A DNA stretch of 64,000 nucleotides from Planctomycetota bacterium (GTDB lineage Bacteria; Planctomycetota; PLA2; JAEUHO01), in contig JARGNS010000001.1 of assembly GCA_029213105.1 (NCBI GenBank), forward strand, positions 5,129 to 69,128, written 5' to 3'. Of this stretch, positions 28,201-58,093 are shown piece after piece (the stretch's first letter is position 1; every line of letters starts with the position of its first letter). The translations under genes and the position numbers were made by a program. Below the pieces are notes generated by a model. That model was not told the DNA's origin and did not search any database. It worked only from the letters and a program-made list of their open reading frames with translations.

Positions 28201-31200
28201 TCCGAGGCGGCGCACGTCGACGAGGTCGGGGAGGTCAACGCCGAGGCGCTCGGTCAGTTGCTCCGGGCGATGGACAACTCCGACGCGAGCCTCGCCCGCG
28301 GCGACGACCTCGACGCGGCGCTGCGCGAGGTCAGCCCCCACCCGATGAAGACGATCGACCGCGCCTCCGAGGAGTTCGTCGGCACGCTCGCGCAGAACGG
28401 GAACTACGGCGCGAAGGCCGCCATCGACCCGCAGTTGTCCTCCACGGTCTTCCTCGTGGCTGAGGACGTCATCGCGGCTGCGAAGGCCTCCGGCGACCCC
28501 GAGAAGGTCAAGCTCGCCGAGGAGGCGGCTGCCGCCATGGACCGCCTCGGTCTGGGTCAGGCACTGACCTTGACCCCGAAGACTGCCGACCTCCGGGTCA
28601 AGGACGCGGTCGGGGCGGACAAGGCGTTCAACACCCGGGATCGTGTGCTGGTCTTGCGGCGCACCCTGCAGCTGCTCGATGACGTCGAGGACGGTCGGGG
28701 CATGCGCGAGCGGGTCTTCCAGGGCCGCCTGCTGGCTCCGATCGAGAGCATCGGCAACACGAAGGTCACCGACATCGAGGGGATGCCGCGAGGCATGACC
28801 ACGCGGGCCGCGGTCGACGTGCTCGGCCCCGTGTCTGACGAGACGCTCGAAGCTGGTCTCAAGACCAGCCGCATGGGCGACGCGGCCAAGGCCGAGGTGC
28901 GCGAGAAGCTCAAGACGCTCCGCGAGTGGCACTCGGACTTCACCAAGGCAATCGACGACAACACCATCCTCGACAAGGATGTCAACAAGGCGCTGCGTCA
29001 GCGCTTCGAGGACCTCGGTATCGCGTCGATGACTGGGCGGCTCTTCGAAGGCCCGTCGACCGGGGCTCGGTACCGCCAGGTCGTGAAGTCGATCCGTGGT
29101 GACGTGAGCGCTGTCTCCGGCGCCTCCCCGATGCGGGCCAAGGTCGCGCAGGGTCTCGCCGGCGTCCTGACCTACAACTACTCCCGCGGCCGGGCGATGC
29201 AGGAGTTCGCACGCGCGATGGTCGACGAGGACGCGCTCAAGCTCGCAGGGCTGAGCGTCGACGCCTTCCTCGACCCCAACGGCGGAGCCCACCGGCTCCG
29301 GCGGTTCGCGGCGGCCGTGCAGGTCGGCGGGCGCGAGACGGTGATGAACTTCCTCGGCGGTCTGCCGGGCGGCTCGAAGGTCTCTGGCGACCTCTCCCGG
29401 TCCGCGGTCTCGCAGAACTCTGCGCGAGCGGCCGCGACCCAGATGCTGGCCGACGGTCAGGATGAGTGGTCCACCGCGACCGCCATCCAGAACGCCGTGG
29501 CACGGAAGCTCCGCGCCCGGCACGCCGCGCTCGTGGAGGGCGGCGACGAGGCGCGTGCGCTCGAGGTCTGGGAGCAGGCTCAGGAGGTCGCGAAGCCGGA
29601 GTGGCAGGAGACGCTCGTCCAGTGGATGCACCGGTCGGCAGACGAGTACAACCGGGCACGCGATGCGGGCGAGACGCCTAACCTCGACGAGTTCGAGCTT
29701 CCGGTCGGCATCGACCCGTCCATCCTGCGGACAGGCGACGCTGAGGCGCGCCCGACCGCGGCTGTGAAGGCGTGGGTCGACGACGTGTACGACCCTGCCT
29801 ACGGCAAGATGCCGCCGAAGGAGGCAACTGACCCGGAGCTGACCCCCACGGCGAAGCAGGGCAAGCGCACGACGCGCCCCGCCCTCTCGGCCGAGGACAA
29901 GAAGGGCGTCACGGCGATCCTCGACAACATGGTCCGCTACATGGCTGGCGTCACGTCCGACATGTCGAAGCGGCAGGTCGAGGCGGTGGTCGGCTCGTGG
30001 CTCGACGACAACATCAAGAACGTCCGCCGGGTCGGCGGAGAGACCCAGTACCGCAAGCAGTTCGACGCGCTACGCGGCGAGTTCGAGACGATGGTCGAGG
30101 ACCGGGTGCGTGAGCTTGTCGGCGACGGCCCCGTCACGGACGCCGCGCGGCGCACCGCGCAGCTCGACGCTCTGGACAGCATCCTCCCGGTCATGACTGA
30201 GGCTGAGGCCATCATCCTCACGGGGTCGTACAAGGACTTCATTCAGGACGCCATCCTGACGGCGCGGTTCGGTGACGAGTTCGAGGCGCGGCGCCTGTTC
30301 CAGGGCGCGGGGTCAGCTGCGACAAGCCGCACGGCGCAGGCCGTGATTCAGGCCGCTCATGACGGTCGAGAGGTTACGTTCCAGCAGCAGCGAGGTGCGA
30401 CGTTCCAGGTGCTGCAAGACATCTACGGCATCGCTGAGCGGGCTGTCGCAGCGATCAAGAACAAGCGCAAGAAGTCGGATGTTCACACCCTGCTGACCTT
30501 GGAGAGGCTCGAAGGTCTCGGGCTCGACGCGGACCTCGACGACGCAATGGATATCGAGGGGTTTATCTCGCTTGTGGCGAAGATGTACCTCGACGAGCCC
30601 GACCGCGACGTGTGGGTGAAGTCTGTCCGTGACCTTGTCGCGCTGAACGTGTCGCGACGACACCCGTCAGAGTACAACCGCACCCCCGGCGTCGGCGGGC
30701 GGACGACCCGCCCCTCGGGCTGGGGAGCCCGGCAGCCGGATACCTACCCAGCGCGCAGCGCCCGTCTCGACGTGAAGCGGCTGCTCGCCCAGACGAGTGC
30801 GGGTCGTCAGTGGTGGCGGGCTGCCCGCCCCACGCTCGGCGGCGTCACGCAGGCCGCTGATGTCAGGCGATCGGAGATGTTCTCGAACTTGGGGACCCGA
30901 TCCCCGCTGTTCGTTAAGTGGTTCGAAGGGTCGAAGGTCGTCGATGACTCGGGCCGAGCCGCTCCGATGTGGCTGCGCGGCACTACGCCTACGGGTGAGG
31001 CCGCGGTTACGGACGGCCCGTTGGGGCGCGGAGTCTACGGCGATGACGCGCTGACAGAGCGTCGGATATTCAGCAACGGCGAAGATGACCCCGCCGGGGC
31101 CGCCTACATGAGGCTCGAGAACCCGCTCGAGGTTCCGGCGATGACCCCCGGCGATGGTTGGTTGAAGTACGACAGCCTCGACGTGGGGTATGAACTGCAG

Positions 31201-34200
31201 TCGGCGGTCTGGGAGCGCCTCATGCGCGACAAGCACTACCGGGCAGCGAGCATCGTGCTCGACGGTAAGAAAGTCAAGATCCATGTGGACCACCCCGAGA
31301 TCATGAAGGCGCTGTCCGCTGAGGCTCGCGAGGCGGGTCACGACGGCATCATCGTCAAGTCTTCCTTGTCTTACCACGAGAACGGCTCGCCAGTCGTCTA
31401 CTTCGCGTTCGACAAGAACGCAGTCAAGATCGCTGATGGTAACGCCGGGTTCGACCCGTCCGACGCGCGGATCCTGTTCCAGGCGGCCGAGAACCCCTAC
31501 GCCGAGGCGAACCGCGACATCCTGTCGGGGCTGGCTGCCGAGGCCGCCCGCCGGCGAGAGGTCGAGGGCCTCCCGGTCAGCAAGATCCCGGCACGGAAGT
31601 TGCCGCGCGACCCCGAGGCGCTGCCTGCGGACACGCACCGCTGGCCGGGCGAGGAGCGAGACGCTCTCGACGCGACGGTCGACGCAGCGCGACTGCGCGC
31701 GGACGTGTCGGGTCTCCCCGAGGCTGCGGAGATCACGGGCACGCAGGCGGCCACCAAGGTCGAGCGGCTCATCGGCAAGAGCCGGGACGACGAGCGCCAG
31801 TACTTCTACGACCTCATCGAGTGGCTCTCCGAGAAGGCGGAGCGCGATGCTGGCGTCAACATCGGCGACTTCCGCCGCATGGCGCCCGAGGGTATGACCG
31901 ACGACGAGGTCAAGAAGGTCTACAAGACCTTCATGGACGAGAAGGTCATCGTCCCGAGCAAGAAGAAGGGCCGCCGCGACGTGAGCCCCGAGGAGGTCGC
32001 GAAGGCTCAGACCTTCATCGACGCGCTCATCTACGACATGAGCGAAGAGGGGATCATCGAGTCCCTCGACGTCGCTGGCCGAGTCAGCCGGCTGGACCTC
32101 GACTCCCTGACCCGCCCCGAGACCATCAAGGACGCGGCGGTGCGCGACGTGGTCGAGAAGCTCAAGAAGTACGCTCCTCAGGAGCTGGACGACATGGTCG
32201 AGGCGCGGGCGCCTACGTTCACCGCCGAGGTCAAGAAGCTCGAGAAGGAGCTTCGCCGGGTCGAGCAGTTCCAGAAGGACGCGGTCAAGTCTCTCAAGGA
32301 TCTGAAGGACAAGCGCAAGCGCACCCTGCGGCAGGGCACCATCAACCGTTACGAGCAGGAGAAGCTCCGCCTGCGTGACGCGCTCGACCGCCTCAAGGCG
32401 CGGCGCGACGCGGACGCAGAGGCGCACGCCAACCTCGGCAGCGTCGCTGCGGAGGCTCGCGCCCGCAAGGCTACGTCCGACGGCGCCGGCGGCGTTGGCG
32501 GGCCGCCTCCGGGCGCTGCGGGCGACGCCCCGCTGGAGGGCTCGAACTCGAACGCCAAGGGCATGGCGTACTTCCTGTCTGATGGAAGCGCGCTACTCTA
32601 CGCGTTCAAGAACGCGGACGCGTCCACGGGCCTGCACGAGATGGCGCACGTGATGCGGCGCAACCTGCGCCAGACGCACCTCGAGACCACGCTGGATTGG
32701 GCCAACGACTTCCTCGAGGCCGAGGGCCTCAGCCCGGTGCGGTTGAACGCGCAAGGCAACTTCGAGGGAGAGGTTCGCTCGGTCATCAACGCCGAGGAGC
32801 TGTTCGCCGAGGGCTTCGAGCGCTACCTCCGCGAGGGGGTCGCACCGACGTCTGCGCTGGAGAAGGTCTTCTCGGTCATCCGCGGCCTGATGGCGAAGAT
32901 CTACTCCGCCATCACGGACGAGGCGATCAACGTCGAGATCAGCGACGAGATGTACAACGTCTTCGACGAGATCTTCGGCGCCCAGCGGAAGCTCACGCTG
33001 GACCAGCTCCCCGAGGTCCAGCGTTACCTTGACTTCCAGCGCGCGAGCGAGGGCGGTGAGATGCGGCGCGGCGGTCGTATCGTTGAGCAGTCCCCTGTGG
33101 AGGAGACCGCTGTCGACCACATGCGGCAGACCTTCCGCAGCCTCGATGACTACCGCGCTCGGTTCGGGATGCCGTACGGTGACCCGAAGACGGACCTGAC
33201 GCAGGGTCCCGGCGCCGAGACCCACCGGTCGAAGCCGCTGGGTCCGGTCTCCCGCCGGGCGCTGAGCCTCGGTGAGGTCTCTGAGCGCATGGGCAAGGAC
33301 CCATCCCAGTGGTCGGCCAAGGAGCGCGCCCTGGCGTTCGCTGACAAGGCCGCAATCGGGGTCGCCTCGGGCGTCCAGGCGGTCGCCTTCGGGCTGTTCT
33401 TCGGCGGCGACGCTGAGCGCGCCTACCGGGCACTCCCGGTCGCGGCGCGCTCCCACCTGCGCGGTCCGATGCGCGAGCTGGAGGAGATGCTCGCTGACCT
33501 CTCCATGCTCACGGTCGACTCGAGCCGACTGGTCGGCGACCAGCGCGAGCGCGCTGTCTCCAACATCGTGAAGTTCTTCCGCGGTGCCTCGGTCCAGATG
33601 CAGACCGGAGCACAGCGCGGCCGACGCACGAAGTCCGCCTTCGTGGACTCCGAGCAGCACCTCATCCGCCTGTTCACCCGGGTCTTCGACGCGATCGACG
33701 ACGAGAGCCTCAAGGCTCTGGATGTGGACGCTGAGGCCGTGCTCGCGAAGATCGCTGGCGCAGACCGGGTCCCCGGGCACTCCTCCAGCGGCGCGCTCAG
33801 CGGCCTCTGGCAGGGGTACCGCGTCTCGCGCCCCGAGGTCTCCTCTCGGACCTCCGAGGCGTTCGCCGGCGGCCTCGTCATCAGCGACGACACCCGTGCG
33901 CGGCTGCAGGTGGTCGAGGGCTCGACCGAGTCGGTCCCCGAGTTGTTCGACGACACGCTCGGCAACATCTTCAAGGCGCTGACCGGGCAGAACCTCGGCA
34001 AGGGCGGTCTCGTCCCCGAGGAGGCCCAGAAGGTTGCAGCCCTGATGGTCTTCCACGCCGGCGGGACCCAGATCCGCAAGGGCGGAGAGGTCTTCACCGC
34101 GGCCGACCTGCGCGCTGGGGCCTACGGCCTCGACGCCATCTACAACGGCTCCGTGGTCACGAAGAACGGGGTCACGGTCGAGATCCCCGGGCTGCTCAAG

Positions 34201-37354: not shown

Positions 37355-37359
37355 GCGAG

Positions 37360-37445
37360 TAGGGGCGGCGGGAGTCGAACCCGCACGAGCACTAAGGCTC
37401 CAGGCGTTTTGAGCGCCCGGCGTCTACCATTCCGGCCACGCCCCC
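37360..37445 (-). tRNA. tRNA-Leu (anticodon CAA), type II with long variable arm, no encoded CCA
   Basis: Reverse complement of 37360-37445 folds by eye: acceptor stem GGGGGCG/CGCCCCT, T8, anticodon stem GGGCG/CGCCT with loop CUCAAAA (U33, anticodon C34A35A36, A37), long variable arm, T-arm GCGGG-TTCGACT-CCCGC. End coordinates approximate to a few nt. Confidence 0.55.
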
Positions 37446-40592: not shown

Positions 40593-42728
40593 CTACGCCA
40601 CTCCCAGCGGGAAGAGGTAGTTCGCGACCTTGGCGATGAAGTCTTCCTCGTCGTCGAAGTGCGGCGTCGGGTCGTTGCGGAACACGAGGCAGTCGAGTTC
40701 GACACGCGAGTGCTTCTCGATGTACTTGCGTGCCCGGGACTTCGCGCTCCGGATCTTCCCGCCGCGGGCGCGGCCGTGCGGCATCTCGACCGGGTCCGCC
40801 CCGAGGAACTCGTCAAAGGGCGGGCGCGACGCGACCTCCTCCGGCGTCGGGGCAGAGGGCTTCTCGGCGGCCTTCGGGGGCGGCGCCGGGGCCTTCGGGG
40901 GCGGCGGGGGCGCAACGGTTGGCTCGCGGCGCGGAGGCAGCGGGAGGTCCATCTGGTCGGTCGCCTCAGGCACGTCGAGGTCGAAGACCCGCCACGTGTC
41001 GGGCGGCGGCTCCGCGGGCTGGACGGTCGAGGACATGAGGATCTGCAGCTTGCAGTCCGCGAGGGCCAAGAGGACCGAGCTGAGCGTCTCCGGGTCCCAC
41101 GCGCGGTCGTCGGGGACGACGATCGTGAGCGGGGTGGGCCGGAGGTCGTTCACGGCGGCGCACATGGCGCAAGTGACCGCGACGCGCTGCGCCTCGGACA
41201 GGCCGACCTTGAGGTAGCGGCCGAAGGCGTCCTCCTCGTACAGCCCGTAGAAGAAGACGGCGCGGCCGTCGTCATCGAGGGTCACCCCGAAGTCCCACCC
41301 CTCGGGCAGGTAGGCCGAGACGGCCACGCAGAACTTCTCGATGCGCTGGGCGAGCAGCGACTGGATGGTCTTCTGGACGTGCGCCTTGTAGCCCTGGAAG
41401 ACCGCGCCCTCGGCGGTCGACTCGTTGGCGTTCTTCAGCGCGGCGTCCATCTGCACCCACTCGGTCTGCTGCCGCTGCAGGGTCGAGAGGTAGTCGCGAT
41501 GCTGCTGGAGCAGGTCACGAGTCTCGTCGAGGTTCACGTCCTCGGCCTTGACGACCTGAGGCACCGAGCGCAGGTCGGACTCCAACTCGAGGATGCGCCG
41601 GTCGAGCGAGGCCTTTTCGAAGGCGAGGTCACGCACGACGCCCTTGGCCTTGGCGTAGGTGGCGTACCCGGTCTCTGCGTCGCCGACCGCGGAGCGGTAG
41701 TAGTCACGGCAGGACTGCAGGTGGCCCTTCGGGACGCTCTGCGAGCATGCGGGGCACTGGTCGTCCCAGCCGGAGTCGATGGCCCAGTCGAGGCCATCAG
41801 CCATCGCGGTCTGCCCGAGCTGGACCTCACCGTCAGCGGGGTCGGGCTCCGTGAGAGAGGCGAAGTGGCGATCGGCTTCGCGGATGCGGCGCTCGAGGTC
41901 GGGGACCTTGGCGCGCTGCACCGTGAGCTTGCCCTCGATGTCCTTCCGCTGGCGGATGGCGTCGGACTGGGCGTCGGCGCGCACCGCGGCCTCGTAGGCG
42001 GACTCGCACTGGCGCACGTTCTCCTTCTGGGCGAGGATCTGGGCGTCGGTGACCCGAGCTTCGACCGAAGCTGCAAGGCGCTCGTGGAGGCTCCTGGAGG
42101 CCTTGGCGTCGGCGTTGCACTGCCGCTGACGGGTGCCGGCGAGCTTGATGGACTGGGTCAACCGGTCGATGTGGCTGCAGTCGAGACCCTCCGTCAGGTC
42201 GACGTAGACCTTGTAGTCGGGCTTGGACAACTCGGTCTCGATGGCGGCGTCGTCGAGGTCGGCGCAGACCCACTCGGTCAGCCGAGCACGAGCAGCCTTC
42301 GCGTTGCTCGCCAAGACCTCCCGCACCTCTCGGTAGATCAGGTGCGGGCTATGCGCGTCCTTGGTCTCGGGCTGGACCCACTCGGGCTTGATGTGGGTCG
42401 GGGTCTTGACCCGGGCGCCGTCGCGGTGGGTGTTCCACTCGCAGGCCTGCCCGTTGCTCAGGGTGACGCGGGCAAAGAGCTTACCCCCGTCGAAGCCGCG
42501 CTGGTAGGCAAGCCCCATCAGGGTCGAGGGGTCGGAGCAGATCTGGCGACCCGCCACGTCGTCGGCGGCACCAGAGACGGCGAGCGCAACGGCCTGCGAG
42601 ACGGTCGTCTTGCCGGTCCCGTTGGCTCCGATGAAGAGGTTGAGCAGGCCGAGCTTGTAGTTCTTCGGCTTGCCGGCGGTCGACTTGAGGTTGAAGGAGA
42701 CCTCGGTGGCGATGGGCGTGTCAGTCAT
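40593..42728 (-). CDS. SbcC/Rad50/RecF-like P-loop ATPase with Pro-rich linker and C-terminal domain
   Basis: About 711 aa from the ATG at 42728 (MTDTPIATEVSF...). Walker A GANGTGKTT. Long charged helical middle region. D-loop/Walker B-like LTIVVPDD. Confidence 0.5.
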   Translation of the reverse strand: MTDTPIATEVSFNLKSTAGKPKNYKLGLLNLFIGANGTGKTTVSQAVALAVSGAADDVAGRQICSDPSTLMGLAYQRGFDGGKLFARVTLSNGQACEWNTHRDGARVKTPTHIKPEWVQPETKDAHSPHLIYREVREVLASNAKAARARLTEWVCADLDDAAIETELSKPDYKVYVDLTEGLDCSHIDRLTQSIKLAGTRQRQCNADAKASRSLHERLAASVEARVTDAQILAQKENVRQCESAYEAAVRADAQSDAIRQRKDIEGKLTVQRAKVPDLERRIREADRHFASLTEPDPADGEVQLGQTAMADGLDWAIDSGWDDQCPACSQSVPKGHLQSCRDYYRSAVGDAETGYATYAKAKGVVRDLAFEKASLDRRILELESDLRSVPQVVKAEDVNLDETRDLLQQHRDYLSTLQRQQTEWVQMDAALKNANESTAEGAVFQGYKAHVQKTIQSLLAQRIEKFCVAVSAYLPEGWDFGVTLDDDGRAVFFYGLYEEDAFGRYLKVGLSEAQRVAVTCAMCAAVNDLRPTPLTIVVPDDRAWDPETLSSVLLALADCKLQILMSSTVQPAEPPPDTWRVFDLDVPEATDQMDLPLPPRREPTVAPPPPPKAPAPPPKAAEKPSAPTPEEVASRPPFDEFLGADPVEMPHGRARGGKIRSAKSRARKYIEKHSRVELDCLVFRNDPTPHFDDEEDFIAKVANYLFPLGVA

Positions 42729-43000
42729 CAGTTCTGCTCCTGAGCGTCGATCTGGTCCCATAGGACTGCGTCAAGCCCGCCGGAGGTGAGGCGGTCGAGG
42801 CGAGAAGACTCGAGGCCACCAGATCCAGTGGTGTACACCGCCTTCACGGCCTCGGCGACGGCGTCGCTCTGGCTCGCTTCGAACTCTCGGTCGCTCTGAT
42901 CGTCGGCGCCCGCCGCGAAGAGTGCGTGCCGGTCCATCTCGACCTCGAGGTGGATGTGCATGATGACAGGCACGGTGACCTTGTAAGTGTAGTCGGACAT
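42728..43000 (-). CDS. Hypothetical protein (90 aa, acidic)
   Basis: Internal ATG of ORF 42728..43102. Ends ..EQN* with TGATG overlap into the next gene. Confidence 0.4.
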   Translation of the reverse strand: MSDYTYKVTVPVIMHIHLEVEMDRHALFAAGADDQSDREFEASQSDAVAEAVKAVYTTGSGGLESSRLDRLTSGGLDAVLWDQIDAQEQN

Positions 43001-44026: not shown

Positions 44027-44419
44027 TCATCGCGTAGGTCTGGCGATCTTCCAGTGCGTGATCGGGTAATCCAGTTCTGACCCCATCGCGCCCCCCGAGC
44101 GCACGCAGTAGACCCGTTGGTTGGGGTGTCCGCTCGAGGTCCCGTGACGACGCCGGGTCAGCGTATTCGGGTTTTCGAGGCGAACTTGATTCGGATGAAC
44201 GACGGCGATGTGACGCTTACCGTCGAGCTTGTCGTACTTGACCCAAAGGGTCGGAAGGCCGAGGCGGCAGCCCCACCCCCGCTCAACCTGAGGATCGGCG
44301 ACGACTTGCGAGCGGAAAGACGTGTGTCCCAAACCGTCAGGGTTGACCACCGATCGCCAGTTGTTAGGCCTTCGGCTCAACTCACACCTCCGCCCAAGTA
44401 CGGCCGACATCGGCCTCAC
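44027..44419 (-). CDS. Hypothetical protein (130 aa) between the HNH gene and the DNA polymerase
   Basis: ORF overlapping the polymerase stop by 38 nt. His/Asn/Pro-rich. Confidence 0.3.
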   Translation of the reverse strand: MRPMSAVLGRRCELSRRPNNWRSVVNPDGLGHTSFRSQVVADPQVERGWGCRLGLPTLWVKYDKLDGKRHIAVVHPNQVRLENPNTLTRRRHGTSSGHPNQRVYCVRSGGAMGSELDYPITHWKIARPTR

Positions 44420-47336
44420 AGGTGAACGGGACGGGCCATCCCGGCACCTTGATGGTCATCAGGCGCGTCATCTCCTTCTGAGCCCACTCCGCGAGATGCT
44501 CAGGCACCTCGACCACGAGGGAGTCGTGGACCTGCGCAGTGATGCCCGTTCCGGGGCCCCACTTGCCAGAGGGGAAGGAGCGCAGGACGCGCATCTCGGC
44601 GATCGACATGATCGCCGACTCGCAGGAGAGCACGGGGTAGTTGACGACCTCGTTCTTCTTGCCCTCCTGCAGCGAGCCGGAGCGGCGACCGAAGAGCGGG
44701 TCCTCCATGAACCCCTGCTGCTCGTAGAGGTCGAGCATGGACTGCCACGCACGCTTCCAGTCGGGCTCGCTCTCGTGCCACACTTGGTCGAAGTAGCGGA
44801 CCTGCCGCAGGTCGAACTTCAGGTACGGCAGCGAGGTCTCGAGCTTGCCCTTCTCGTTGAAGCCCGTCATCTCGGTCGACCGGATGACGCTGTGCTTGGT
44901 CTCCGCGCCCGCCCAATAAATTGACGCGTACCTGTATGTTTTCGTAAGTTCCCGTAATTGCCCAGCTTTTCCCTTCTTCGAGGGCTTGTGGGTCGCCTTG
45001 AGCGAGAAACCCTTCGTCCACCCGGATGCGTTCTCGAAGTCCTTCCCGAAGAGGTCGTGAGCGAGCCAGCAGTGCGGGTCGAGGTTCTGATCGAAGCAGT
45101 CGAGCAGGCGCTCGATCTGCCAGTAGTTCGCCGTGATGACGAGGTGAGCCGCGCTGAGGTCGCACCCGACGAGGACGTTGCCTGGCGCCGCGCAGTAGAC
45201 CTTGCGGACACCGCCGAGGTCCTTGCGGCTCGACTGGTTCTGCATGTTCGGGCCGCTCGAAGAGAATCGACCGACCGCGGTCGTGTGGCTGTTCCAGTTC
45301 GACCGGATGCGGCTGTCCGGGTGGAGTCTCCCCTTCTTGGTCAGACCCAGCGGGGTCAGAGACCGGAGCTGGGTGCCGAGCACCTTCACGACCACGCGCC
45401 GGTACTGGCGGAGCTTCATGAGGAAGTTGAACTGGTCCTTTGACAACTCCGGGTTCGACATGTGGGCGCGGAGGACCGCGTCCCCGGTGCCGGGCAGGCC
45501 CGACTGGGTGTAGAAGTCCTTCGCATCCATGCCGTAGGGGCAGCCGAGGTCCCAGTCCTCGTACAGGAGGTTCCGGATCTGGTCGAACGACCGCGGGTTC
45601 ACCACGTCGTCGTCTGCCTCGACGCTGCCCATGTCGAGCTTCTTCAGGCCGACGCGCGCGGCAAGCTCCTGCAGGTCTCCGTTGAGGTCGACCGAGACCT
45701 TCTCGAACTTCTCGGTCAGGGTCTTGACCAGCGCCTGGTCGACGTAGACCCCGTTCTGGTGCATCTGGACGCACAGGTCCTGCCGTGCGTGGTCGAGGTT
45801 GCGCAGGTCCCACGGACGGGCGCTCGGCCAGTCCACGGGCTTCGCCCAGTCGGGGAGCGGCCGCGCTGCTCCGTTCTCATCCGCGGAGCGGTGCAGCGGC
45901 TCCTTGATGCGGGCGTTGACCACGGTGTCGAACTGGCAGTAGACGAGCCGGTCCTTGACCGTGAGGCGAGAGGTCGCGGTGCCCTCCCCGCTCTCGCTGG
46001 TCTCCCACTTGTGGACGTCCGTGATGCGGCGTCCGGTCGGCTTGAGGCCCTTGGGCAGGTCGGGGTGCGTGAATCGGGTGTCGAACAGCGTGTCGTGCGA
46101 CGGCTGCGGCCGCACGCCAAAGTAGTGCTCCGACACCTGACGGTCGAAGTAGCCCTCGTTGTGGCCGACCTTGAGCTTCGCTGGGTCGGTCAGGAACTCG
46201 ACGATGATCTCCTTGATCTCCGCGAGTTCCTCGGGACCGTACTCCCGCACGCGCTGCGACGGCACGGCGCGGCGGTTGAGGTCCATGTCGAGGTGGATGC
46301 CGACCACCCGGGCGACCTGATGCGGCGTCTCCCACGGCATGGTCGGGTTGCCGTCGACGTCCATGTCAGGGGTCGCGATCGACAGGCAGTCGATGCTGAT
46401 GTCGCGGACGTTGATGCCGTCGGTCTCGTAGTCGTAGACCCAGAACGGCGCCGCGACCGAGAGCCACTCGCGCAACTGCTGCGGGGCTGGCTGGCTGAGG
46501 ACCTCCGGCTCGCGCCACAACAGGGCGTCGTTGAACCAGCGCAGCGCCTTGCCGAGGGTCGCCGTGAACTGCGGCCGGAACTTCGGGGCGTGCTTGATGT
46601 AGCCGGGGTCGAACGTGGGGACGACCTTCACGGTCCAGTCGTAGTCGACCTGCGTCCAGTCGAACGCGTCCCAGAAGAGGCGGCTGGCCTTCCGCTCGAT
46701 CATGTCGCCCTCGAGACGCGACATCGAGTTCGTGGTCTCGAGGAGCTTCTGAGAAGGCGTCGTGCCGAGCGGGAGGATGTACTGGTACTTCGAGGCGATG
46801 CGCAACATGTGCTGTCGGCAGCACTCGACCGGGTGCGGCGCCTCCTTGGCAGCCATCTCCTTGGCCTTCGAGGCCTTAGCGCCGGCGCGCTTGTAGTCCT
46901 TCGCGATCTTCTTGCGCTGGCGCTTGATCGTCGCGTCGAGCTTCTTCCACGGTGCCTTCGCTCCCGGGGGGCGGCAGGCCACGACGTGGGCGAGGTCGAT
47001 GTGAGTACGCTTGAGGCCGACGGCGGCGAGCGATCGAGACCACTCACCGCCGTCGGGGCCCGCCAGCGGACGACCGTACTGCTGGTCGTCCTGCTTGGGG
47101 GCTTCGAGGATACCGAGGACCGTGGACCCCTCGCGAAGCTCCGGCTTGACCGGGCGCCAGGGGCCATCACGGAGACAGCCGTTCGGTCCGAGAGGGCAAC
47201 GGTCGCAGTCTGCGCCGTGTTCGCGGGGGTCGTAGGTCATCAGCAGATCTTCCCACCGTGGCGGTGGCTGCGCGTCTTGTTGTATGCCATCTTCCTCATG
47301 ACAGCCTCCCCGAGGTCGATGCCGAGGGCGCCGCAC
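44382..47336 (-). CDS. DNA polymerase, family A, with 3'-5' exonuclease domain and N-terminal family-4 UDG-like domain
   Basis: 984 aa. N-terminus CDRCPLGPNG..ILEAPKQDDQQYGRPLAGPDG is family-4 UDG-like. Exo I motif YDYETDG. Pol motif A VGCDLSAAHLVITANYW, motif B KTYRYASIYWAG, motif C VHDSLVVEV. Confidence 0.85.
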   Translation of the reverse strand: MRRPRHRPRGGCHEEDGIQQDAQPPPRWEDLLMTYDPREHGADCDRCPLGPNGCLRDGPWRPVKPELREGSTVLGILEAPKQDDQQYGRPLAGPDGGEWSRSLAAVGLKRTHIDLAHVVACRPPGAKAPWKKLDATIKRQRKKIAKDYKRAGAKASKAKEMAAKEAPHPVECCRQHMLRIASKYQYILPLGTTPSQKLLETTNSMSRLEGDMIERKASRLFWDAFDWTQVDYDWTVKVVPTFDPGYIKHAPKFRPQFTATLGKALRWFNDALLWREPEVLSQPAPQQLREWLSVAAPFWVYDYETDGINVRDISIDCLSIATPDMDVDGNPTMPWETPHQVARVVGIHLDMDLNRRAVPSQRVREYGPEELAEIKEIIVEFLTDPAKLKVGHNEGYFDRQVSEHYFGVRPQPSHDTLFDTRFTHPDLPKGLKPTGRRITDVHKWETSESGEGTATSRLTVKDRLVYCQFDTVVNARIKEPLHRSADENGAARPLPDWAKPVDWPSARPWDLRNLDHARQDLCVQMHQNGVYVDQALVKTLTEKFEKVSVDLNGDLQELAARVGLKKLDMGSVEADDDVVNPRSFDQIRNLLYEDWDLGCPYGMDAKDFYTQSGLPGTGDAVLRAHMSNPELSKDQFNFLMKLRQYRRVVVKVLGTQLRSLTPLGLTKKGRLHPDSRIRSNWNSHTTAVGRFSSSGPNMQNQSSRKDLGGVRKVYCAAPGNVLVGCDLSAAHLVITANYWQIERLLDCFDQNLDPHCWLAHDLFGKDFENASGWTKGFSLKATHKPSKKGKAGQLRELTKTYRYASIYWAGAETKHSVIRSTEMTGFNEKGKLETSLPYLKFDLRQVRYFDQVWHESEPDWKRAWQSMLDLYEQQGFMEDPLFGRRSGSLQEGKKNEVVNYPVLSCESAIMSIAEMRVLRSFPSGKWGPGTGITAQVHDSLVVEVPEHLAEWAQKEMTRLMTIKVPGWPVPFTCEADVGRTWAEV
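44921..44950 (+). promoter_or_regulatory. AT-rich island inside the polymerase coding region containing sigma-70-like TTGACG-N18-TAAGTT on the plus (antisense) strand
   Basis: ttgacgcgtacctgtatgttttcgtaagtt read directly. Encodes the conserved motif-B peptide with rare AT-rich codons. Confidence 0.25.
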
Positions 47337-53091: not shown

Positions 53092-53546
53092 GGCGCACCG
53101 CCGTCGACGACGGCACGCGCCGCGTAAAAGGCGGCGTCCACCTCCCTGACAAAGGCCTTGAAGGAGGTGAGAGCGTCGCAGTTGTCGCACTGCCCGCCCG
53201 GACGGTGCCAAGACCGCTCGTCGTTGAAGTAGTCGAAGTCCTCAGGCAGCGACTGCAGCACCATCAGCGCGGCGCGTCCAGTATCTGATAACCAAGCGCC
53301 TCGCGGCGAGGTACCGTACTCGAGAAGATCGTTGCTGACCAACAACCCCCGCAAGAGGTCGGCGGCACCGTCGTCGTACTTGGCCCAGAACTCCAAACCC
53401 CTCTCCTCGAAGTAGGGCGTGGCTTCGAGGGCCTCTCGGACCCACTCGTACGCGCGCCCGTCGTACACCACAAGACTATCGTCGAGGCAACAGCCCGACA
53501 GGTAGACGAAGAGGCCGCGGGTGACCTCTGGAGTACATCTGGTCAT
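53088..53546 (-). CDS. Hypothetical protein (152 aa)
   Basis: Clean ORF. CDNC motif near the C-terminus. Confidence 0.4.
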   Translation of the reverse strand: MTRCTPEVTRGLFVYLSGCCLDDSLVVYDGRAYEWVREALEATPYFEERGLEFWAKYDDGAADLLRGLLVSNDLLEYGTSPRGAWLSDTGRAALMVLQSLPEDFDYFNDERSWHRPGGQCDNCDALTSFKAFVREVDAAFYAARAVVDGGAP

Positions 53547-54142
53547 GGCGTCTCCGGGTGGACTCGACCATCGGGCATGATCCAGCGAATGGACGGCGCT
53601 CCGACGTGACCGTGGCGCCAGACGAAGAAGCCGTAGTCGGCCGCGTCCGTCCCGCCGCCGGTGAACGACGGTCGACGGCAGAGCACGTAGACCTCGGAGA
53701 GCGGGGTCTCAGACCAGAACTTCGCCCTGCGCATGGTTGCGAGGAAGCTCAGTCGCAGGATGAAGCCCACCACCGGGGCCATCTCAAGCGACTGACGTAC
53801 CTGCACCTCCGCCGCGTAGAACGGCGGGTTGCCGACCACAGCGGTCACGCTGGGGTAGTCGTTCTCGACGAGGTGTGCGACCTCCTCGAACTTGCCGAGG
53901 TAGAACTCGTCGACGATGTCCTTACCGTCAGCCTCGGGGTCGAGGTCGACGCCGACCACGGTGGCCTTGCCTTTCGTGTGCTTGTAGACGGCGTTGACGA
54001 AGGCGCCGCCGCCTACGCTCGGCTCGACCACGGTGTGAAGCTCCTCTCGGTCGAGGAGGCCCACGAGCTGGTTGGCGAGGTAGTCGGGGGTGTAGTAACG
54101 GTCGAGCTTGTCACGCTCGCCGCCGCGGTTGGTTGCACTCAC
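53543..54142 (-). CDS. N6-adenine DNA methyltransferase (Dam-like, orphan)
   Basis: 199 aa. Motif I EPSVGGGAF. Motif IV GNPPF. N-terminal YYTP. Confidence 0.75.
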   Translation of the reverse strand: MSATNRGGERDKLDRYYTPDYLANQLVGLLDREELHTVVEPSVGGGAFVNAVYKHTKGKATVVGVDLDPEADGKDIVDEFYLGKFEEVAHLVENDYPSVTAVVGNPPFYAAEVQVRQSLEMAPVVGFILRLSFLATMRRAKFWSETPLSEVYVLCRRPSFTGGGTDAADYGFFVWRHGHVGAPSIRWIMPDGRVHPETP

Positions 54143-54351
54143 ACTTGCTCCATGAGTCTCATGAGAAGGGCGATGAAGGCGAGCAGCGCCGCCACATCGA
54201 GGCTGTTCAGCAGAACCCTAAGCCACTGGCGAGGAGTTCGCTTCTTGGGGATCGTCGGTGATCGGTAGTAGAGGTAGTGCGGGACTACCTTGATCACAGG
54301 CGCGACTTCCTCGGTCGAGTCGTCATGGGTCATTCGCTGGTCACTCGTCAC
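54139..54351 (-). CDS. Small membrane protein (70 aa)
   Basis: C-terminal hydrophobic helix LLNSLDVAALLAFIALLMRL. Confidence 0.35.
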   Translation of the reverse strand: MTSDQRMTHDDSTEEVAPVIKVVPHYLYYRSPTIPKKRTPRQWLRVLLNSLDVAALLAFIALLMRLMEQV

Positions 54352-57139
54352 CTCCGAAGAGCGACGCCAAGATTGACGCGCTCATTGCTTGTTTATCGTC
54401 CGTACCAAGTAGCTTTTCGCCCATGCCTTGGTACTGCTCGGCTTCCAGGAAGTCTCGGATCGGGATCATCTTGTCGGCGAGGATCCCAGCGATCTTCTCG
54501 TCGTAGGTGTGCTTGGCGAGGACCACCTTCAGGAGGGTCGGAGACCCACCGATGCGGTCGAAGCGCCCCTTCCACTGCTCGAAGTCACCGGGCCGCCAAG
54601 GCAGCATGGCGAAGAAGGCGAGGCTCGCGGTCTGGAGACCGTCCACCGACTCGCCGAAGGCCTGCCCCGTCCCGATGAGGATGCAGGGTCCGTCCGACTT
54701 GCGGAAGTCGGAGACCATGTCCTCACGCTCCCGCTCGTCGGTGCCTCCGTGACCCCACCATAGGTCGGGCATCCGGCCCCCGTAGAGGTTCTTCTTGACG
54801 TCCTTGACCAGCGCCTTGCGGACGAGGTCTGCCCAGTCCTCGCAGTCCTTACGGCGGGCGGTGAACAAGACGACCTTGCCGCCGCCGCGGAGACCCTCAA
54901 CGACCTCCTCGAGGATGTACCGGCGCTTGACAGACGCGGCCGCCATGAGGTTGGCCTCGATCGCCCGCTCCTTGTCGAAGTCGGTGCCGGTCGAGACCGC
55001 CTGCTTCTCAGCCGCGGCGATGATGCGCTTGAAGGCGCCGGGTCGGTTCTGGTCGGACTTGTCGAGCCACACGACCTGAACGCGGGTCGGCGGCAACTGG
55101 CCGTGCGACTCGGTGTGGGTGACCTCCTGCAGCATGTAGGAGGCGCGGGCCTTCAACTCGTCGAGGTTGCTGCTGCCCTTGTCGTTGAGTCCGCCGAACT
55201 CACCCGGCGTCGCCCCGCAGTACCGGAGCGCGAAGCTCCGGAAGCCCATCGAGAACGACCCCGGCGCCAGTAGGTCGAGCTGGCTCCACAGGCGCCGCGG
55301 GCGCCCGTCGTCCAGCGGGGTCGCCGTCAGACCGATGCGGAGCTTCAGGCTCGGCATGCGGCTGACCTCCATCGCTGCCACCGCCCGGGTCTCCCGGGTG
55401 TCCGTCGACGTCCGTCTCTTCTGGAAAGATACGGAGCCATCCCCCTCGTTGATCGGCTTCCAACGCTTCGCCTGTCCCAGATTGTGTGTCTCGTCGATGA
55501 TGAGCACCGACGCGCTGAGGTCCATGATCTGCTGGAGGTAGTCCGCCACCAACTGCATGCCGAATACCACGAACGGTCGGCGGCCCGCCAGGTTGCACTC
55601 GAGCAGGTACTCGTCGAGCGTCTGGTCTCCCTTCCGCATCTGCCCCTGAGGGATGACGCGGTAGGGGACGATGTTCGTGTACTCCTGGACTTGGTCCCAC
55701 CAGACGCGGCGCGCCTTGGCGGGTGCAACGACGCAGACCGAGCCGCCCCGCGTGAGCGAGGCGAGCATCGACGAGAGCGTCTTGCCGCTGTTGTGGACTA
55801 CGAAACCTTCGGCGACGTAGTGGTAGTGCGGCCCAGCCATCGAGATGTCGTAGGTGTCCTCCTCTCCGTACTCCTCGATCTTCTTGATCTCCTCCCACTT
55901 CACGCCGAAGAGTACATCCTTCGCACACGCCTCGTCACCGTGTCGCTTCGCGTGATCCCAGTGAGTGAGGACTTCGAGGTTGTCGGGGTGGTTGTTTTTC
56001 GAGTCGTGGTCGACGTGATGAACAGCGAACACTTTTGGGTCGATGAAGGTCAGTCCTTCGTGACAACCAGACCGGACTTTCTTAACGAACGCCTCGACGT
56101 CCATGCCTGAGGCCCGCGCTTCCGCCACCAGTCGATGCTGCGGCACTCTGCAGACAGTCGCAACGTGAGGGTACTTCTCCCCGCTGCGCCTCGTCAACGT
56201 GCGCTTCCTCTCGTACGTCGAAGCGTACGGGTGGTTTCGCACCCCGCGCTGCCGGTAACGTGTCCTACGCCCGCGGCCCCGCTTGCGATCGTTGTTACGC
56301 ACCTGGACGACGTCACCAACCCTCAGGTCTCTGAGTTCGCGGAACCCTTCCGGAGTCATGAACTTGTGGTCGAGCGTGGCTCTGATCGAGAACTCACCAG
56401 CCTCCACCGTCCACGTGACCTTCTTACCCGTAGGGAAGGCGTCCACTACGCGGTTGAGGCGGATGCGCTCGTCGATCACAGACTGAGCGTCTGTCGGAAT
56501 GTCGAGGATCCACTTCCTGCCGCGACCCGCGTCGGTCGCGAACCCACCCCGCAACGCCGAGGCGAGACCCTTGATGGTCACTTCAGTGCCCTTCCCGGCG
56601 CGGTTGATCTTCACTCGCGTTTCGCCGGACACGCATCCGGCGGGCATGCAGTAGAACGCCCACGGCCTGGTGGCCGCCCAGTATACCGCGCGAGCTTGGT
56701 AGTCGGTGACGAGGTCGAGGACGAACGGCTTGACCTCCCGCCGTTCGATCATCCCCTCGATGAGGGAGCGGCCGTAGACCGCCATGGTCTCGAGCATCTC
56801 GGGGTCGGTCGGCCACGCGAAGATGTCGTCGACGTTGACGGCTTCGACCACGCGGAAGTCGAGCCCCGCCTCAGCGAGGTGGTACTCGAACAGCCACGCG
56901 CAGTTGAGCGGCACGAAGCATCGGTAGTAGTCGAAGCTCTCGATGTCGACTTCGCCCGCCTCGCGGACCTTCTTGATGCGGTTCCACGTGCGGCTACCGT
57001 TGTGGTGACCGTACGCGAGGATGCCGGGGAGGCGGGCCTCCTCGTTCATCAGGAAGTTCGCGGCGCCGACACCGTCCGGCTGGACGACGTAGACGTACTG
57101 CGGTTGGTCCTTGAGGGGGCTGAACATCACATGCTCCAT
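54341..57139 (-). CDS. SNF2-family helicase interrupted by an intein in the Walker A motif
   Basis: Extein motifs: Walker A split as MPAG|...|SGKT, DExH LIIDETHNL, motif III GLTATPL, motif VI QWKGRFDRIGG. Start uncertain (57139 or 57127; the ORF track gives 57199). Confidence 0.8.
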   Translation of the reverse strand: MEHVMFSPLKDQPQYVYVVQPDGVGAANFLMNEEARLPGILAYGHHNGSRTWNRIKKVREAGEVDIESFDYYRCFVPLNCAWLFEYHLAEAGLDFRVVEAVNVDDIFAWPTDPEMLETMAVYGRSLIEGMIERREVKPFVLDLVTDYQARAVYWAATRPWAFYCMPAGCVSGETRVKINRAGKGTEVTIKGLASALRGGFATDAGRGRKWILDIPTDAQSVIDERIRLNRVVDAFPTGKKVTWTVEAGEFSIRATLDHKFMTPEGFRELRDLRVGDVVQVRNNDRKRGRGRRTRYRQRGVRNHPYASTYERKRTLTRRSGEKYPHVATVCRVPQHRLVAEARASGMDVEAFVKKVRSGCHEGLTFIDPKVFAVHHVDHDSKNNHPDNLEVLTHWDHAKRHGDEACAKDVLFGVKWEEIKKIEEYGEEDTYDISMAGPHYHYVAEGFVVHNSGKTLSSMLASLTRGGSVCVVAPAKARRVWWDQVQEYTNIVPYRVIPQGQMRKGDQTLDEYLLECNLAGRRPFVVFGMQLVADYLQQIMDLSASVLIIDETHNLGQAKRWKPINEGDGSVSFQKRRTSTDTRETRAVAAMEVSRMPSLKLRIGLTATPLDDGRPRRLWSQLDLLAPGSFSMGFRSFALRYCGATPGEFGGLNDKGSSNLDELKARASYMLQEVTHTESHGQLPPTRVQVVWLDKSDQNRPGAFKRIIAAAEKQAVSTGTDFDKERAIEANLMAAASVKRRYILEEVVEGLRGGGKVVLFTARRKDCEDWADLVRKALVKDVKKNLYGGRMPDLWWGHGGTDEREREDMVSDFRKSDGPCILIGTGQAFGESVDGLQTASLAFFAMLPWRPGDFEQWKGRFDRIGGSPTLLKVVLAKHTYDEKIAGILADKMIPIRDFLEAEQYQGMGEKLLGTDDKQAMSASILASLFGGDE
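55790..56635 (-). mobile_element. Intein (282 aa) with embedded HNH endonuclease, inserted in the SNF2 helicase P-loop
   Basis: Begins CVSGETRV directly after helicase ..YCMPAG. Ends ..GFVVHN followed by SGKT. HNH block HHVDHDSKNNHPDNLEVLTHWDH. Splicing would restore GxxGSGKT. Confidence 0.7.
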
Positions 57140-57573
57140 TCGAGGTGGTTTCTCGGCTTCAGCAGGCAGTCGCTCACGCGGATCAGCATCCGCTCGCAAG
57201 CGGTCGTGGCGGGGCGCGCCCGGTGGAGGTACGTGCCGGAGTACTCCCAGACGTACCCCTCTTCGAGCACCGCACCCCCGTCACCCTCGGTCGGAGTGCC
57301 TCCGAAGGTCAGCAGCCGGTGGGTCTCCCAAGCAGCCTCCTCTCCGTCAGCGTGCCAGCGGCAGTGGCCGAAGGACTCTCCGGCCGCAAGCGGCTGGCAC
57401 CAGTAGGTGACGGTCGGTCGCTCGAGACCCTTCGCCATCATCTCGACCACTTCCATGACCGCGGGGTCGAGGTAGTGCCCGGCGAAGGTGAGGGTGCTGT
57501 ACTTGAACTTCGCGAAGCGCCAGGCGCCCGGGTCGATGAAGACCCGGGCGCCGCGCCGCGCCTCAGTACCCAT
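57127..57573 (-). CDS. Hypothetical protein (148 aa)
   Basis: Clean ORF with Trp/His-rich composition. Confidence 0.4.
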   Translation of the reverse strand: MGTEARRGARVFIDPGAWRFAKFKYSTLTFAGHYLDPAVMEVVEMMAKGLERPTVTYWCQPLAAGESFGHCRWHADGEEAAWETHRLLTFGGTPTEGDGGAVLEEGYVWEYSGTYLHRARPATTACERMLIRVSDCLLKPRNHLEWSM

Positions 57574-58093
57574 ATTCGACGAACTCGGACTTGATCACGA
57601 CCTTGCCGTCGATGACCCGGATGGTCCCCTCGGTGTTCGTCTCGGTCACGAACTCGATGCCCGCCGTGATGAAGGCGAGGAACCCGTGGAAGGGCTCATC
57701 GTAGAGCGCCTTGCGCGCAGCCGCCTGCTCGGGGCTACCGTAATCGAGAGCGGAATACGCACGGTACTTCGCGACGAACTCCTTGGACACGCCCTTCTCA
57801 AGCGCGTCTTCGAGTCCCGCGTCGTCGTACCGGAGGTCCCACACCTCCATGTGCGAGACGCAGCCGTCCTCGTCGATGAACACGTAGTAGTCGTCGTTGA
57901 AGCCCGCGATGCCAGCGTACATCTGCGAGTGCGTGCAGGGATCGCCGTCGTTGAAGCCGGGCGTGTAGCCGCAGAAGACGATCGTCGGCAGGTCGACCAA
58001 CTCGCTCAGGCGAATGAGGTCCCGCTTCCACTGCGCCCCGAGGTCCATGTCGTTCCAGAACTTGCAGATCTTGGTTGCTTCGTCACTCATCAT
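57563..58093 (-). CDS. Hypothetical protein (176 aa)
   Basis: Clean ORF, acidic. Confidence 0.4.
   Translation of the reverse strand: MMSDEATKICKFWNDMDLGAQWKRDLIRLSELVDLPTIVFCGYTPGFNDGDPCTHSQMYAGIAGFNDDYYVFIDEDGCVSHMEVWDLRYDDAGLEDALEKGVSKEFVAKYRAYSALDYGSPEQAAARKALYDEPFHGFLAFITAGIEFVTETNTEGTIRVIDGKVVIKSEFVEYGY

Follow-up and report, generated by a model that had tools for sequence, protein, structure and literature searches.

The window, the 64,000-nucleotide stretch of a metagenomic or MAG contig analyzed here, encodes on its minus strand an SNF2-related SF2 helicase precursor interrupted by an in-frame insert (positions 54341-57127, with the stop codon at 54341-54343). The original prediction read a 952-residue SNF2 helicase from the mechanical open reading frame, which begins at a TTG at 57199 and ends at 54341. 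The frame and its helicase domains stand, but the true start is probably the ATG at 57127 (MFSPLK...), judging from sequence comparison with orthologs, whose starts read M(x)FSPLKDQP, and with the database protein P0001 (928 aa), which is 100% identical to the 928-residue precursor. SF2 helicase motifs I, II (DExH), III, and VI are all readable in the host-protein sequence, and the full protein matches the Pfam domains SNF2-rel_dom (29.3 bits, GA 24.9) and Helicase_C (27.9 bits, GA 23.5). Since only positions 154-265 of the 290 in the SNF2-rel_dom profile match, "SNF2-related" is a safer name than "SNF2". The helicase also matches the PHROG_62 DNA helicase (E 8e-41), and the spliced helicase found no match among PDB sequences at E<=0.01. 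It belongs to a phage replication module, and the contig is phage-like. In GenBank, the protein cluster of this helicase is labeled only "HNH endonuclease [Planctomycetota bacterium]"; reading the gene as an intein-interrupted replication helicase, rather than a plain HNH endonuclease, corrects the function assigned to it as well as the way the contig is understood.

Where does the insert lie? It separates the Gly from the Ser in ...MPAG^SGKT..., within motif I (Walker A). On the minus strand, the N-extein (56636-57127, 164 aa) ends in ...RPWAFYCMPAG, with Gly-1 encoded by GGA at 56636-56638; the intein (55790-56635, 282 aa) runs from Cys1 (TGC, 56633-56635) to Asn282 (AAC, 55790-55792); and the C-extein (54341-55789, 482 aa plus the stop) begins with Ser+1 of SGKT (AGC, 55787-55789), the predicted nucleophile. 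In the 952-residue frame, the insert CVSGETRV...VVHN occupies residues 189-470, between ...WAFYCMPAG and SGKTLSSML. The coordinates and junctions originally proposed are therefore exact, with the correction that the gene lies on the minus strand, and the motifs quoted then (LIIDETHNL, LTATPL, QWKGRFDRIGG, and the HNH block HHVDHDSKNNHPDNLEVLTHWDH) are all present. The C-extein carries the DExH box (IIDETH), motif III LTATP, Helicase_C, and motif VI QWKGRFDRIGG. Excision had been expected to give GxxGSGKT; it would restore the P-loop, but the spliced motif is MPAGSGKT, of the SF2 motif I xxxGSGKT type and not literally GxxGSGKT. Splicing in silico lifts the scores of the N-terminal RecA domain (DEAD from 11.9 to 25.5 bits, ResIII from 12.7 to 20.8 bits), and the spliced extein scores 31.0 for SNF2-rel_dom (GA 24.9) and 29.1 for Helicase_C (GA 23.5).

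The ends of the insert form the two halves of a splicing domain. The N-terminal splicing region of the HINT fold (minus strand, 56297-56635; intein residues 1-113) contains block A, CVSGET, and block B, T87-L-D-H90 (56366-56377), and the C-terminal splicing region (minus strand, 55790-55897; residues 247-282) contains block F, EEDTYDISM with D263, and block G, HYVAEGFVVHN with H281 and N282. None of the blocks A, B, F, and G is missing, and 43 family members show little or no variation at the catalytic residues: C1, H90, D263, and N282 are invariant, together with H206, H207, N219, L220, and H232, and the splicing residues T87 and H281 are conserved in at least 90% of the members. On the full protein, Pfam Intein_splicing (PF14890) scores 39.1 bits (GA 35.8, E 8.4e-10), and taken together the Pfam matches to the protein lie far above chance level. 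NCBIfam TIGR01443 (intein_Cterm) lies above its cut-off (16.8 vs 15.6), whereas TIGR01445 (intein_Nterm) falls below (15.9-18.3 bits vs 24.5). Could the insert be a dead intein that no longer splices, and the gene a pseudogene with an inactive helicase? The low intein_Nterm score would fit, but the shortfall reflects divergence and a loop of 20-30 residues after block A and is outweighed by PF14890 together with the profile and structural evidence. Moreover, the 2.8-kb reading frame is intact, C1, T87, H90, D263, H281, N282, and S+1 are all present, and the exteins keep every helicase motif and the high GC3 typical of the phage's expressed genes. We consider loss of splicing highly improbable.

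A profile of the family matches solved inteins, namely the Ssp DnaB mini-intein 1mi8 (E 2.5e-23), Npu DnaB 4o1r (1e-22), and the Mtu RecA intein (1e-14). The matches run through blocks B and F/G; block B aligns to Ssp DnaB IKATANHRFLT (TANH), and the C-terminal splicing region aligns to Ssp/Npu DnaB blocks F/G. The AF2 model of the intein (pLDDT 94.4) has the HINT fold. With this model as the Foldseek query, inteins make up the whole of the best 33 matches, and the 50 listed comprise only inteins and bacterial intein-like (BIL) HINT domains, the match to NpuDnaB having a TMt of 0.87 at 2.6 A. By sequence profile and by structure alike, the window intein is best matched by the class-1 inteins of Ssp/Npu DnaB (1mi8, 4o1r) and by the Mtu RecA intein (2imz), which have in common with it the HINT fold, block B TxxH, and block F/G D...HN. 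They differ in interrupting other proteins at other sites, their splicing-domain identity to the window intein is only about 25-29%, and in each case a mini-intein or an engineered splicing domain was crystallized, whose natural parent either lacks a HEN or carries LAGLIDADG. The Pfam matches above GA, the conserved catalytic residues, and the profile and predicted-fold matches to characterized class-1 inteins bear out the canonical class-1 assignment made earlier. A class-3 intein (Trp in block B, Cys at block F:4, and Thr in block G, without a position-1 nucleophile) was considered and rejected: Cys1 is present, and in block F the conserved residue is Asp263, not Cys.

Nested within the splicing domain is an HNH_3 (I-HmuI-like) homing-endonuclease domain (minus strand, 55898-56284; intein residues ~118-246), a genuine domain of the type originally proposed. 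In order, it comprises a basic linker, a beta-hairpin, an HRLVAEA helix, and a core with the beta-beta-alpha-metal fold. The catalytic core (minus strand, 55940-56029; residues 203-232) reads AVHHVDHDSKNNHPDNLEVLTHWDHAKRH, and its D209, N214, N215, and H228 are conserved in at least 90% of the 43 family members. Pfam HNH_3 scores 25.2 bits on the full protein, barely over the GA of 24.8, and 27.4 on the segment, and the profile matches 23 of 23 relatives. I-HmuI (1u3e) is a phage HNH homing endonuclease that is free-standing, intron-encoded, and equipped with additional DNA-binding modules; unlike it, the window domain sits within a HINT fold, after a linker rich in Arg and Lys. An HMM scan of the window in all six frames matched only the helicase locus, with no second intein and no related free-standing HNH gene. 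The window also encodes, at 40593-42761, another ATPase P-loop, GANGTGKTT, which is uninvaded.

Might the insert instead be a permanent HNH domain of a nuclease-helicase fusion? The SNF2-family protein ZRANB3 carries an HNH domain and offers a comparison. The fusion reading is effectively refuted by several observations. Inside the Walker A loop, the insert makes ATP binding impossible in that state. The P-loop runs through the insertion site as a contiguous G[SA]GKT in 31 of 31 intein-less ortholog clusters, set against six intein-plus clusters, and the insert is therefore not a conserved, non-splicing helicase domain. The same cassette recurs in AAA+, DnaB, UvrD, and RecA hosts. The exteins of an intein-plus allele (L004) and an intein-less allele (L003) are 90.6% identical at the nucleotide level over 1950 nt; an exact in-frame insertion of 843 nt at CCGTGCGG^AGCGGCAAGACACTG sets L004 apart. 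The empty GSGKT site of L003 reads ...CCGTGCGGAAGCGGCAAGACACTG..., and a second empty allele, L001, encodes GAGKT.

Anatomy, homology, predicted fold, and presence/absence polymorphism are shown here, and we regard it as very probable that the insert is a class-1 intein with an HNH endonuclease in helicase motif I, one that would both splice and home. In the proposed pathway, translation would yield the 928-residue precursor, of about 104 kDa, with its ATP-binding loop broken by the intein. Cys1 and Gly-1 would form a thioester through an N-S acyl shift assisted by T87 and H90 of block B, the P-loop's own Ser+1 would attack the thioester to give a branched ester, and Asn282, aided by H281 and D263, would cyclize and release the intein. 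An O-N shift would then remake the peptide bond, leaving a 646-residue helicase of about 72 kDa with an intact GSGKT, beside a free intein of about 32 kDa. The HNH domain of the freed intein would nick or cut intein-less helicase alleles in co-infecting related phages, the putative target being the P-loop-coding DNA GGN^AGCGGCAAGAC, and recombinational repair off the intein-plus copy would copy the element in.

The ancestry of the intein bears on its mobility. Identity of the window intein to its relatives is flat, at 30-47%, for host exteins that range from 70% identical to unrelated. The inteins of the closest orthologs (P0002-P0006) are 68-73% identical to one another and about 42% identical to the window intein. 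Intein GC3 is 0.773, whereas none of the 421 windows of equal length taken from the phage's own genes falls below 0.794 (mean 0.895, SD 0.031). On these sequence measures, the window intein is an independent, compositionally foreign lineage, distinct from the inteins of its closest orthologs. The pattern is that of a homing element, with sporadic presence and absence among close alleles and an intein phylogeny decoupled from that of the host gene. The alternative is an intein that splices but is immobile, a vertically inherited passive passenger whose HNH is inactive or kept for another reason. Among P0002-P0006, intein identity tracks extein identity (about 70%), as under vertical co-inheritance; the HNH_3 score of the window copy is marginally above threshold; and conservation of the HNH domain may serve a function other than homing. 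We nevertheless think immobility unlikely, given that the HNH core residues are invariant in 43 diverged members and all present in the window copy, that closely similar alleles occur both with the intein and without it, that the lineage and GC3 of the window copy are foreign as described, and that 62-67%-identical inteins occupy unrelated ATPases, so that an active mobility function is needed somewhere in the family.

Why should an intein reside in a P-loop? The original prediction called this a favored site, and published surveys agree (PMC4760082, PMC5050341). Novikova et al. (PMC4760082) make the case that inteins are selectively retained at P-loops, and the P-loop inteins of DnaB and RadA have been shown to splice conditionally (PMC6195587). 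By analogy, the intein could be a conditional switch, retained for its benefit, in which regulated splicing (e.g., by redox or by metal via cysteines) gates the helicase ATPase, and the intein does have the extra cysteines C162, C191, and C237. However, these are not conserved, C1 being the sole Cys among the invariant and near-invariant residues, and most ortholog clusters do without the intein. A switch of this kind seems to us quite improbable.

How does this element compare with known ones? The classic P-loop inteins (mycobacteriophage TerL1-a/b, DnaB-b, MCM-a, RFC-a, RadA; PMC5050341, PMC4760082, PMC6195587) likewise interrupt Walker A and use a P-loop hydroxyl as the +1 nucleophile. Their register is GK^[S/T], with the Mg-coordinating Ser/Thr as +1, whereas the window intein and ~170 of 184 relatives lie two residues upstream, at G^[S/T/C]GK[S/T], a register that may already be catalogued. 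The +1 residue in the upstream register is a dispensable P-loop position, being Ala in 11 of the 31 intein-less orthologs. In other HNH inteins (Dalgaard et al. 1997; actinobacteriophages, bioRxiv 10.1101/2025.01.02.630785), the HNH domain is likewise nested in-frame in the HINT fold, replacing LAGLIDADG. Those of actinobacteriophages are reported to be rare and non-canonical, and their hosts are DNA polymerase, minor capsid, terminase, and thymidylate synthase (bioRxiv 10.1101/2025.01.02.630785), not helicase P-loops as in the window. The host class of the window intein, an SNF2-related SF2 helicase, is shared with the SNF2/HepA-family inteins, including that of Deinococcus radiodurans Snf2. 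The D. radiodurans Snf2 intein belongs to class 3. So does the actinophage helicase intein of phage Alice (bioRxiv 10.1101/2025.01.02.630785), and the window intein, with Cys1 and a block F Asp, differs from both in being class 1. The SNF2/HepA family accounts for 15 inteins in bacteria (PMC4760082) and for "HEL" of mycobacteriophage C1 (PMC5050341). Finally, the Anaeramoeba cluster-1 inteins have relatives in the P-loops of non-homologous proteins, read as P-loop-to-P-loop transfer (PNAS 2023, PMC10710043); that case is eukaryotic and intragenomic, whereas the window family is viral/prokaryotic, metagenomic, and HNH-bearing, with SF1, SF2, DnaB/RecA-type, and AAA+ hosts.

A phmmer search over 1.84 billion representatives returned 2281 relatives of the intein, and at E<=1e-30 the family comprises at least 209 clusters (50% identity), hosted by SNF2, DinG/XPD, UvrD, DnaB-primase, AAA+/EccA, and RecA-type proteins. 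Among the full-length members, Cys comes first in 184 of 184 and HN last in 179 of 184; the register x^[STC]GK[ST] holds in ~170 of the 184, with S, T, or C as the +1 residue family-wide. The window intein is <48% identical to any relative found. This identity and a lineage unlike that of the closest orthologs agree with the suggestion of a new intein allele, but the insertion point is not unique, because many metagenomic sequences carry an intein at this site, in this gene and in related ones. Against GenBank phages, megablast of the helicase gene gave no match, and tblastn of the window intein gave none against 50,697 GenBank phage records or against PLSDB plasmids. A more central family member used as the query retrieved nothing closer than HNH inteins, HINT fragments, and free HNH genes of about 30% identity, so that deposited phage genomes essentially lack the family. 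A literature search, partial in its coverage and thus weak evidence, found no description of the HNH intein family or of the G^xGK register. The kind of element is already known, while the window allele and its family are poorly documented.

The family data bear on the concentration of inteins in P-loops. That inteins 62-67% identical reside in ATPases without detectable extein similarity favors motif-directed ectopic homing as a partial explanation beside selective retention. We tentatively suggest, as a possibility somewhat short of an even chance, that these inteins are P-loop generalists, whose HNH would read DNA for G-[S/T/C]-G-K-[S/T] and not for one gene, and which would have hopped repeatedly between non-homologous phage and bacterial ATPases. 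If this is true, Ala+1, as in GAGKT alleles, would give host or phage a simple route to refractoriness against invasion. The locus itself is a clean natural example of an HNH rather than a LAGLIDADG intein, of one codon independently invaded by different intein lineages, and of a single homing site that related ~80-kb phages carry in filled, empty-Ser, and empty-Ala form. A compact class-1 intein that tolerates Gly-1 and Ser+1 in a GSGKT context could suit the conditional control of ATPases.

A minus-strand ORF (54341..57199) with a TTG start encodes 952 amino acids and includes the sequence that the original prediction read as an SNF2 helicase interrupted in its P-loop by an HNH-containing class 1 intein. 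The real start of the gene is probably the ATG at 57127 (MFSPLKDQ...), giving 928 amino acids, because this is also the start of all orthologues and of a database protein (P0001) that is identical. The DExH box (LIIDETHNL), LTATPL, QWKGRFDRIGG and HHVDHDSKNNHPDNLEVLTHWDH motifs quoted for the helicase were every one located in the ORF. The insert, CVSGETRV...VVHN, spans ORF residues 189-470 between ...RPWAFYCMPAG and SGKTLSSMLASL; mapping by script placed its 282 amino acids at 55790-56635, exactly as had been claimed. Excision restores GSGKT as predicted, but the resulting SF2-type motif I reads MPAGSGKT and not the literal GxxGSGKT that had been proposed.

Is the insert a mobile element or a domain of the helicase? 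Besides many proteins with only the insert in common, a whole-protein search returned five more clusters of intein-plus orthologues (P0002-6, 918-930 aa) and 31 clusters of intein-less orthologues (P0007-37, 640-656 aa, 50-76% identity to the extein). An uninterrupted G[SA]GKT occupies the exact insertion position in 31/31 intein-less orthologues, bearing out the claim that the insert splits the P-loop, and the extein alignment is colinear across the site; the insert is not a conserved helicase domain. Two related metagenomic contigs, L004 (intein-plus, P0002) and L003 (intein-less, P0007), encode exteins that are 90.6% identical (1950 nt) and differ in structure only by an in-frame insertion of exactly 843 nt at the empty site CCGTGCGGA^AGCGGCAAGACACTG. 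The insert is thus polymorphic among close helicase alleles, with intein-less loci at 10001-11959 of contig L001 and 54-2003 of L003. In-silico excision raises the scores of the N-terminal RecA domain (DEAD from 11.9 to 25.5 bits, ResIII from 12.7 to 20.8), and therefore the P-loop exists only once the insert is removed. The +1 residue is Ser in every intein-plus allele, while empty sites carry Ser (20/31) or Ala (11/31). Because Ala+1 could not be the splicing nucleophile, an intein may be unable to invade GAGKT alleles productively.

Pfam models matched the whole protein above their gathering thresholds (GA) for Intein_splicing (39.1 bits, GA 35.8), HNH_3 (25.2, GA 24.8), SNF2-rel_dom (29.3, GA 24.9) and Helicase_C (27.9, GA 23.5). 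Among NCBIfam models, intein_Cterm exceeded its cut-off, intein_Nterm scored under its cut-off, and partial matches were to models of intein-containing DnaB, RtcB, RNR and RecA. The PHROGs matches were to DNA helicase (E 8e-41) and to several families of HNH endonucleases. Homologous inserts were excised from 53 database proteins and 43 of these were aligned. Residues C1, R12, G70, H90, L101, R168, H206, H207, N219, L220, H232, D263 and N282 are invariant, while T87, H281 and the ANGFVVHN block are at least 90% conserved. All four splicing blocks were located, with their residues conserved across the 43 members: Cys1 (A), T87-x-x-H90 (B), D263 (F) and H281-N282 (G). With Cys as its first residue and Asp, not Cys, conserved in block F, the intein belongs to class 1 and not to class 3. 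The conserved residues also cover the HNH core, whose invariance, together with the HNH_3 score, upholds the HNH domain assignment; the nested segment (aa ~118-246) matches HNH_3 in 23/23 family members.

Searched against all PDB sequences, the alignment profile found experimentally studied inteins as its top matches, including the Ssp DnaB mini-intein (1mi8, E 2.5e-23) and Npu DnaB (4o1r, 1e-22), with further matches to the Mtu RecA intein, DnaE inteins and Mxe GyrA. Every intein match consisted of two stretches, block B and blocks F/G. An AlphaFold2 model built from the alignment (pLDDT 94.4) shows the strand-strand-helix core expected of HNH at 203-241. The best 33 Foldseek matches to the PDB were all inteins, and all 50 of the 50 listed were inteins or bacterial intein-like (BIL) HINT domains (NpuDnaB, TMt 0.87 at 2.6 A). 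Family models, predicted fold and empty alleles together show the observation to be real and support the original reading of a class 1 HNH intein in an SNF2-helicase P-loop. A conserved helix preceding the HNH core, HRLVAEArLNGlsxeeF (intein aa ~160-185; window ~56080-56155, minus strand), gave weak profile matches to ribosomal protein bL20 (E 0.003; RINAGARLNGLSYSRFI), probably reflecting composition or a generic nucleic-acid-binding helix.

How would such an element operate? The analysis shows its residues, predicted fold, empty and filled alleles, decoupled phylogeny and foreign composition; splicing, cleavage and homing are inferred. Standard class 1 splicing would begin with a thioester at Cys1, followed by transesterification by Ser+1, Asn282 cyclisation and an O-N shift, restoring GSGKT and setting free a 282-aa HNH protein. 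The latter would cut or nick intein-less alleles of co-infecting phage, and recombinational repair would then copy the intein into the cut allele.

Identity of the window's intein to each of its relatives stays within 30-47%, for host exteins of 62-70% identity (P0002-6) and unrelated ones alike. The P0002-6 inteins share 68-73% identity among themselves, tracking their exteins, and about 42% with the window's copy, whose nearest intein relative resides in an SNF2 homologue of only about 33% extein identity. At least two lineages of intein have therefore settled in one and the same codon of this gene. The GC3 of the intein is 0.773 versus 0.92 and 0.89 for the exteins, lower than in all 421 equal-length windows from the genes of this phage (minimum 0.794, mean 0.895, sd 0.031), a foreign compositional signature.

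A phmmer search of 1.84 billion cluster representatives detected 2281 relatives, of which 1119 reach E<=1e-10 and 209 reach E<=1e-30; the top match apart from the query itself shares 43-48% identity. In proteins spanning the whole intein, Cys is first in 184/184 and HN last in 179/184; insertion is at x|[S/T/C]GK[S/T] in about 170/184, most commonly G|SGKT (83) and G|TGKT (32). Hosts, read from precomputed Pfam annotation and an unbiased sample of 56, include SNF2, ResIII/SF2, DinG/XPD-type (Helicase_C_2), UvrD/SF1, DnaB-primase, Prim-Pol, AAA+/EccA1, AAA_5, AAA_24/25/30 and RecA. For 61 of the 184, the most similar intein is found in a host without detectable extein similarity, which indicates repeated transfer between unrelated P-loop ATPases. 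Inteins 62-67% identical reside in a DinG/XPD-like helicase, an SF2 helicase, an SNF2 protein and an EccA1-like AAA+ ATPase (P0102, P0119, P0126, P0129, P0131, P0146) with undetectable extein similarity, evidence for fairly recent jumps from one P-loop to another.

The P-loop is a classic location for inteins, about 70% of which in prokaryotes occur in ATP-binding proteins; the classic P-loop register is GK|[S/T], e.g. TerL1-a (PMC4760082, PMC5050341). The register here lies two residues upstream. Whereas +1 of DnaB-b is the Mg-coordinating Ser (PMC6195587), here it is a dispensable loop position, and therefore Ala alleles can exist. Known SNF2/HepA inteins number 15 in bacteria (PMC4760082) and two in cluster C1 mycobacteriophages (PMC5050341). 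HNH inteins are also known; in actinophages they are regarded as rare and non-canonical, and the host proteins reported for them are different ones (bioRxiv 10.1101/2025.01.02.630785). For the eukaryote Anaeramoeba, the spread of inteins from P-loop to P-loop among non-homologous proteins was described as striking (PMC10710043). In the incomplete literature collection searched, we found no publication on this HNH/P-loop family. The intein is a new, divergent example of an established type of element and by itself of modest interest; some is added by the pattern across its family, a large set of metagenomic HNH inteins that specialise on G|xGK[S/T] in unrelated ATPases, with a Ser/Ala polymorphism at +1.

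The window is predicted to be a segment of a phage genome, encoding a portal protein, ThyX, RNA ligase, a DUF927 primase-helicase-type protein and an AAA_24 protein. Its 984-aa family A DNA polymerase (44382-47336, minus strand; 940 aa in related contigs) carries at its N-terminus a domain of the uracil-DNA-glycosylase superfamily (UDG 23.7 bits, slightly below GA 24.3). A 3886-aa ORF (25225-36885, plus strand), with Phage_lysozyme (aa 431-556) its only Pfam hit, may encode a giant virion-associated or ejection-type protein. A single tRNA-Leu(CAA) (37359-37445, minus strand) separates the structural and replication modules. Helicase orthologues lie on syntenic metagenomic contigs of ~80 kb. 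GenBank MDF1699594.1, which clusters with the window's protein at 90% identity, is wrongly named 'MAG: HNH endonuclease [Planctomycetota bacterium]'; it is an intein-containing helicase, and its 73,432-bp MAG contig is probably a phage binned into the MAG because portal, DNA polymerase A, ThyX and the like are phage gene content.

Neither a second intein of this family nor a related free HNH gene was found in the window. A 722-aa ATPase without a Pfam hit (40593-42761, minus strand) has an uninvaded P-loop, LFIGANG|TGKTT, in the G|TGKT register of the family, and could thus serve as an ectopic target within this genome. Directly 3' of the helicase, a 199-aa ORF (53543-54142, minus strand) gave no Pfam match at E<=0.01 and contains VVGNPPFY, similar to motif IV of N6-adenine/N4-cytosine DNA methyltransferases. 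On the other side, a 176-aa ORF without a Pfam hit (57563-58093, minus strand) separates the helicase from a conserved 286-aa gene; on the related contigs L001, L002 and L004 the latter is the helicase's immediate neighbour, and the 176-aa ORF is therefore a lineage-specific insertion beside the intein-bearing gene.
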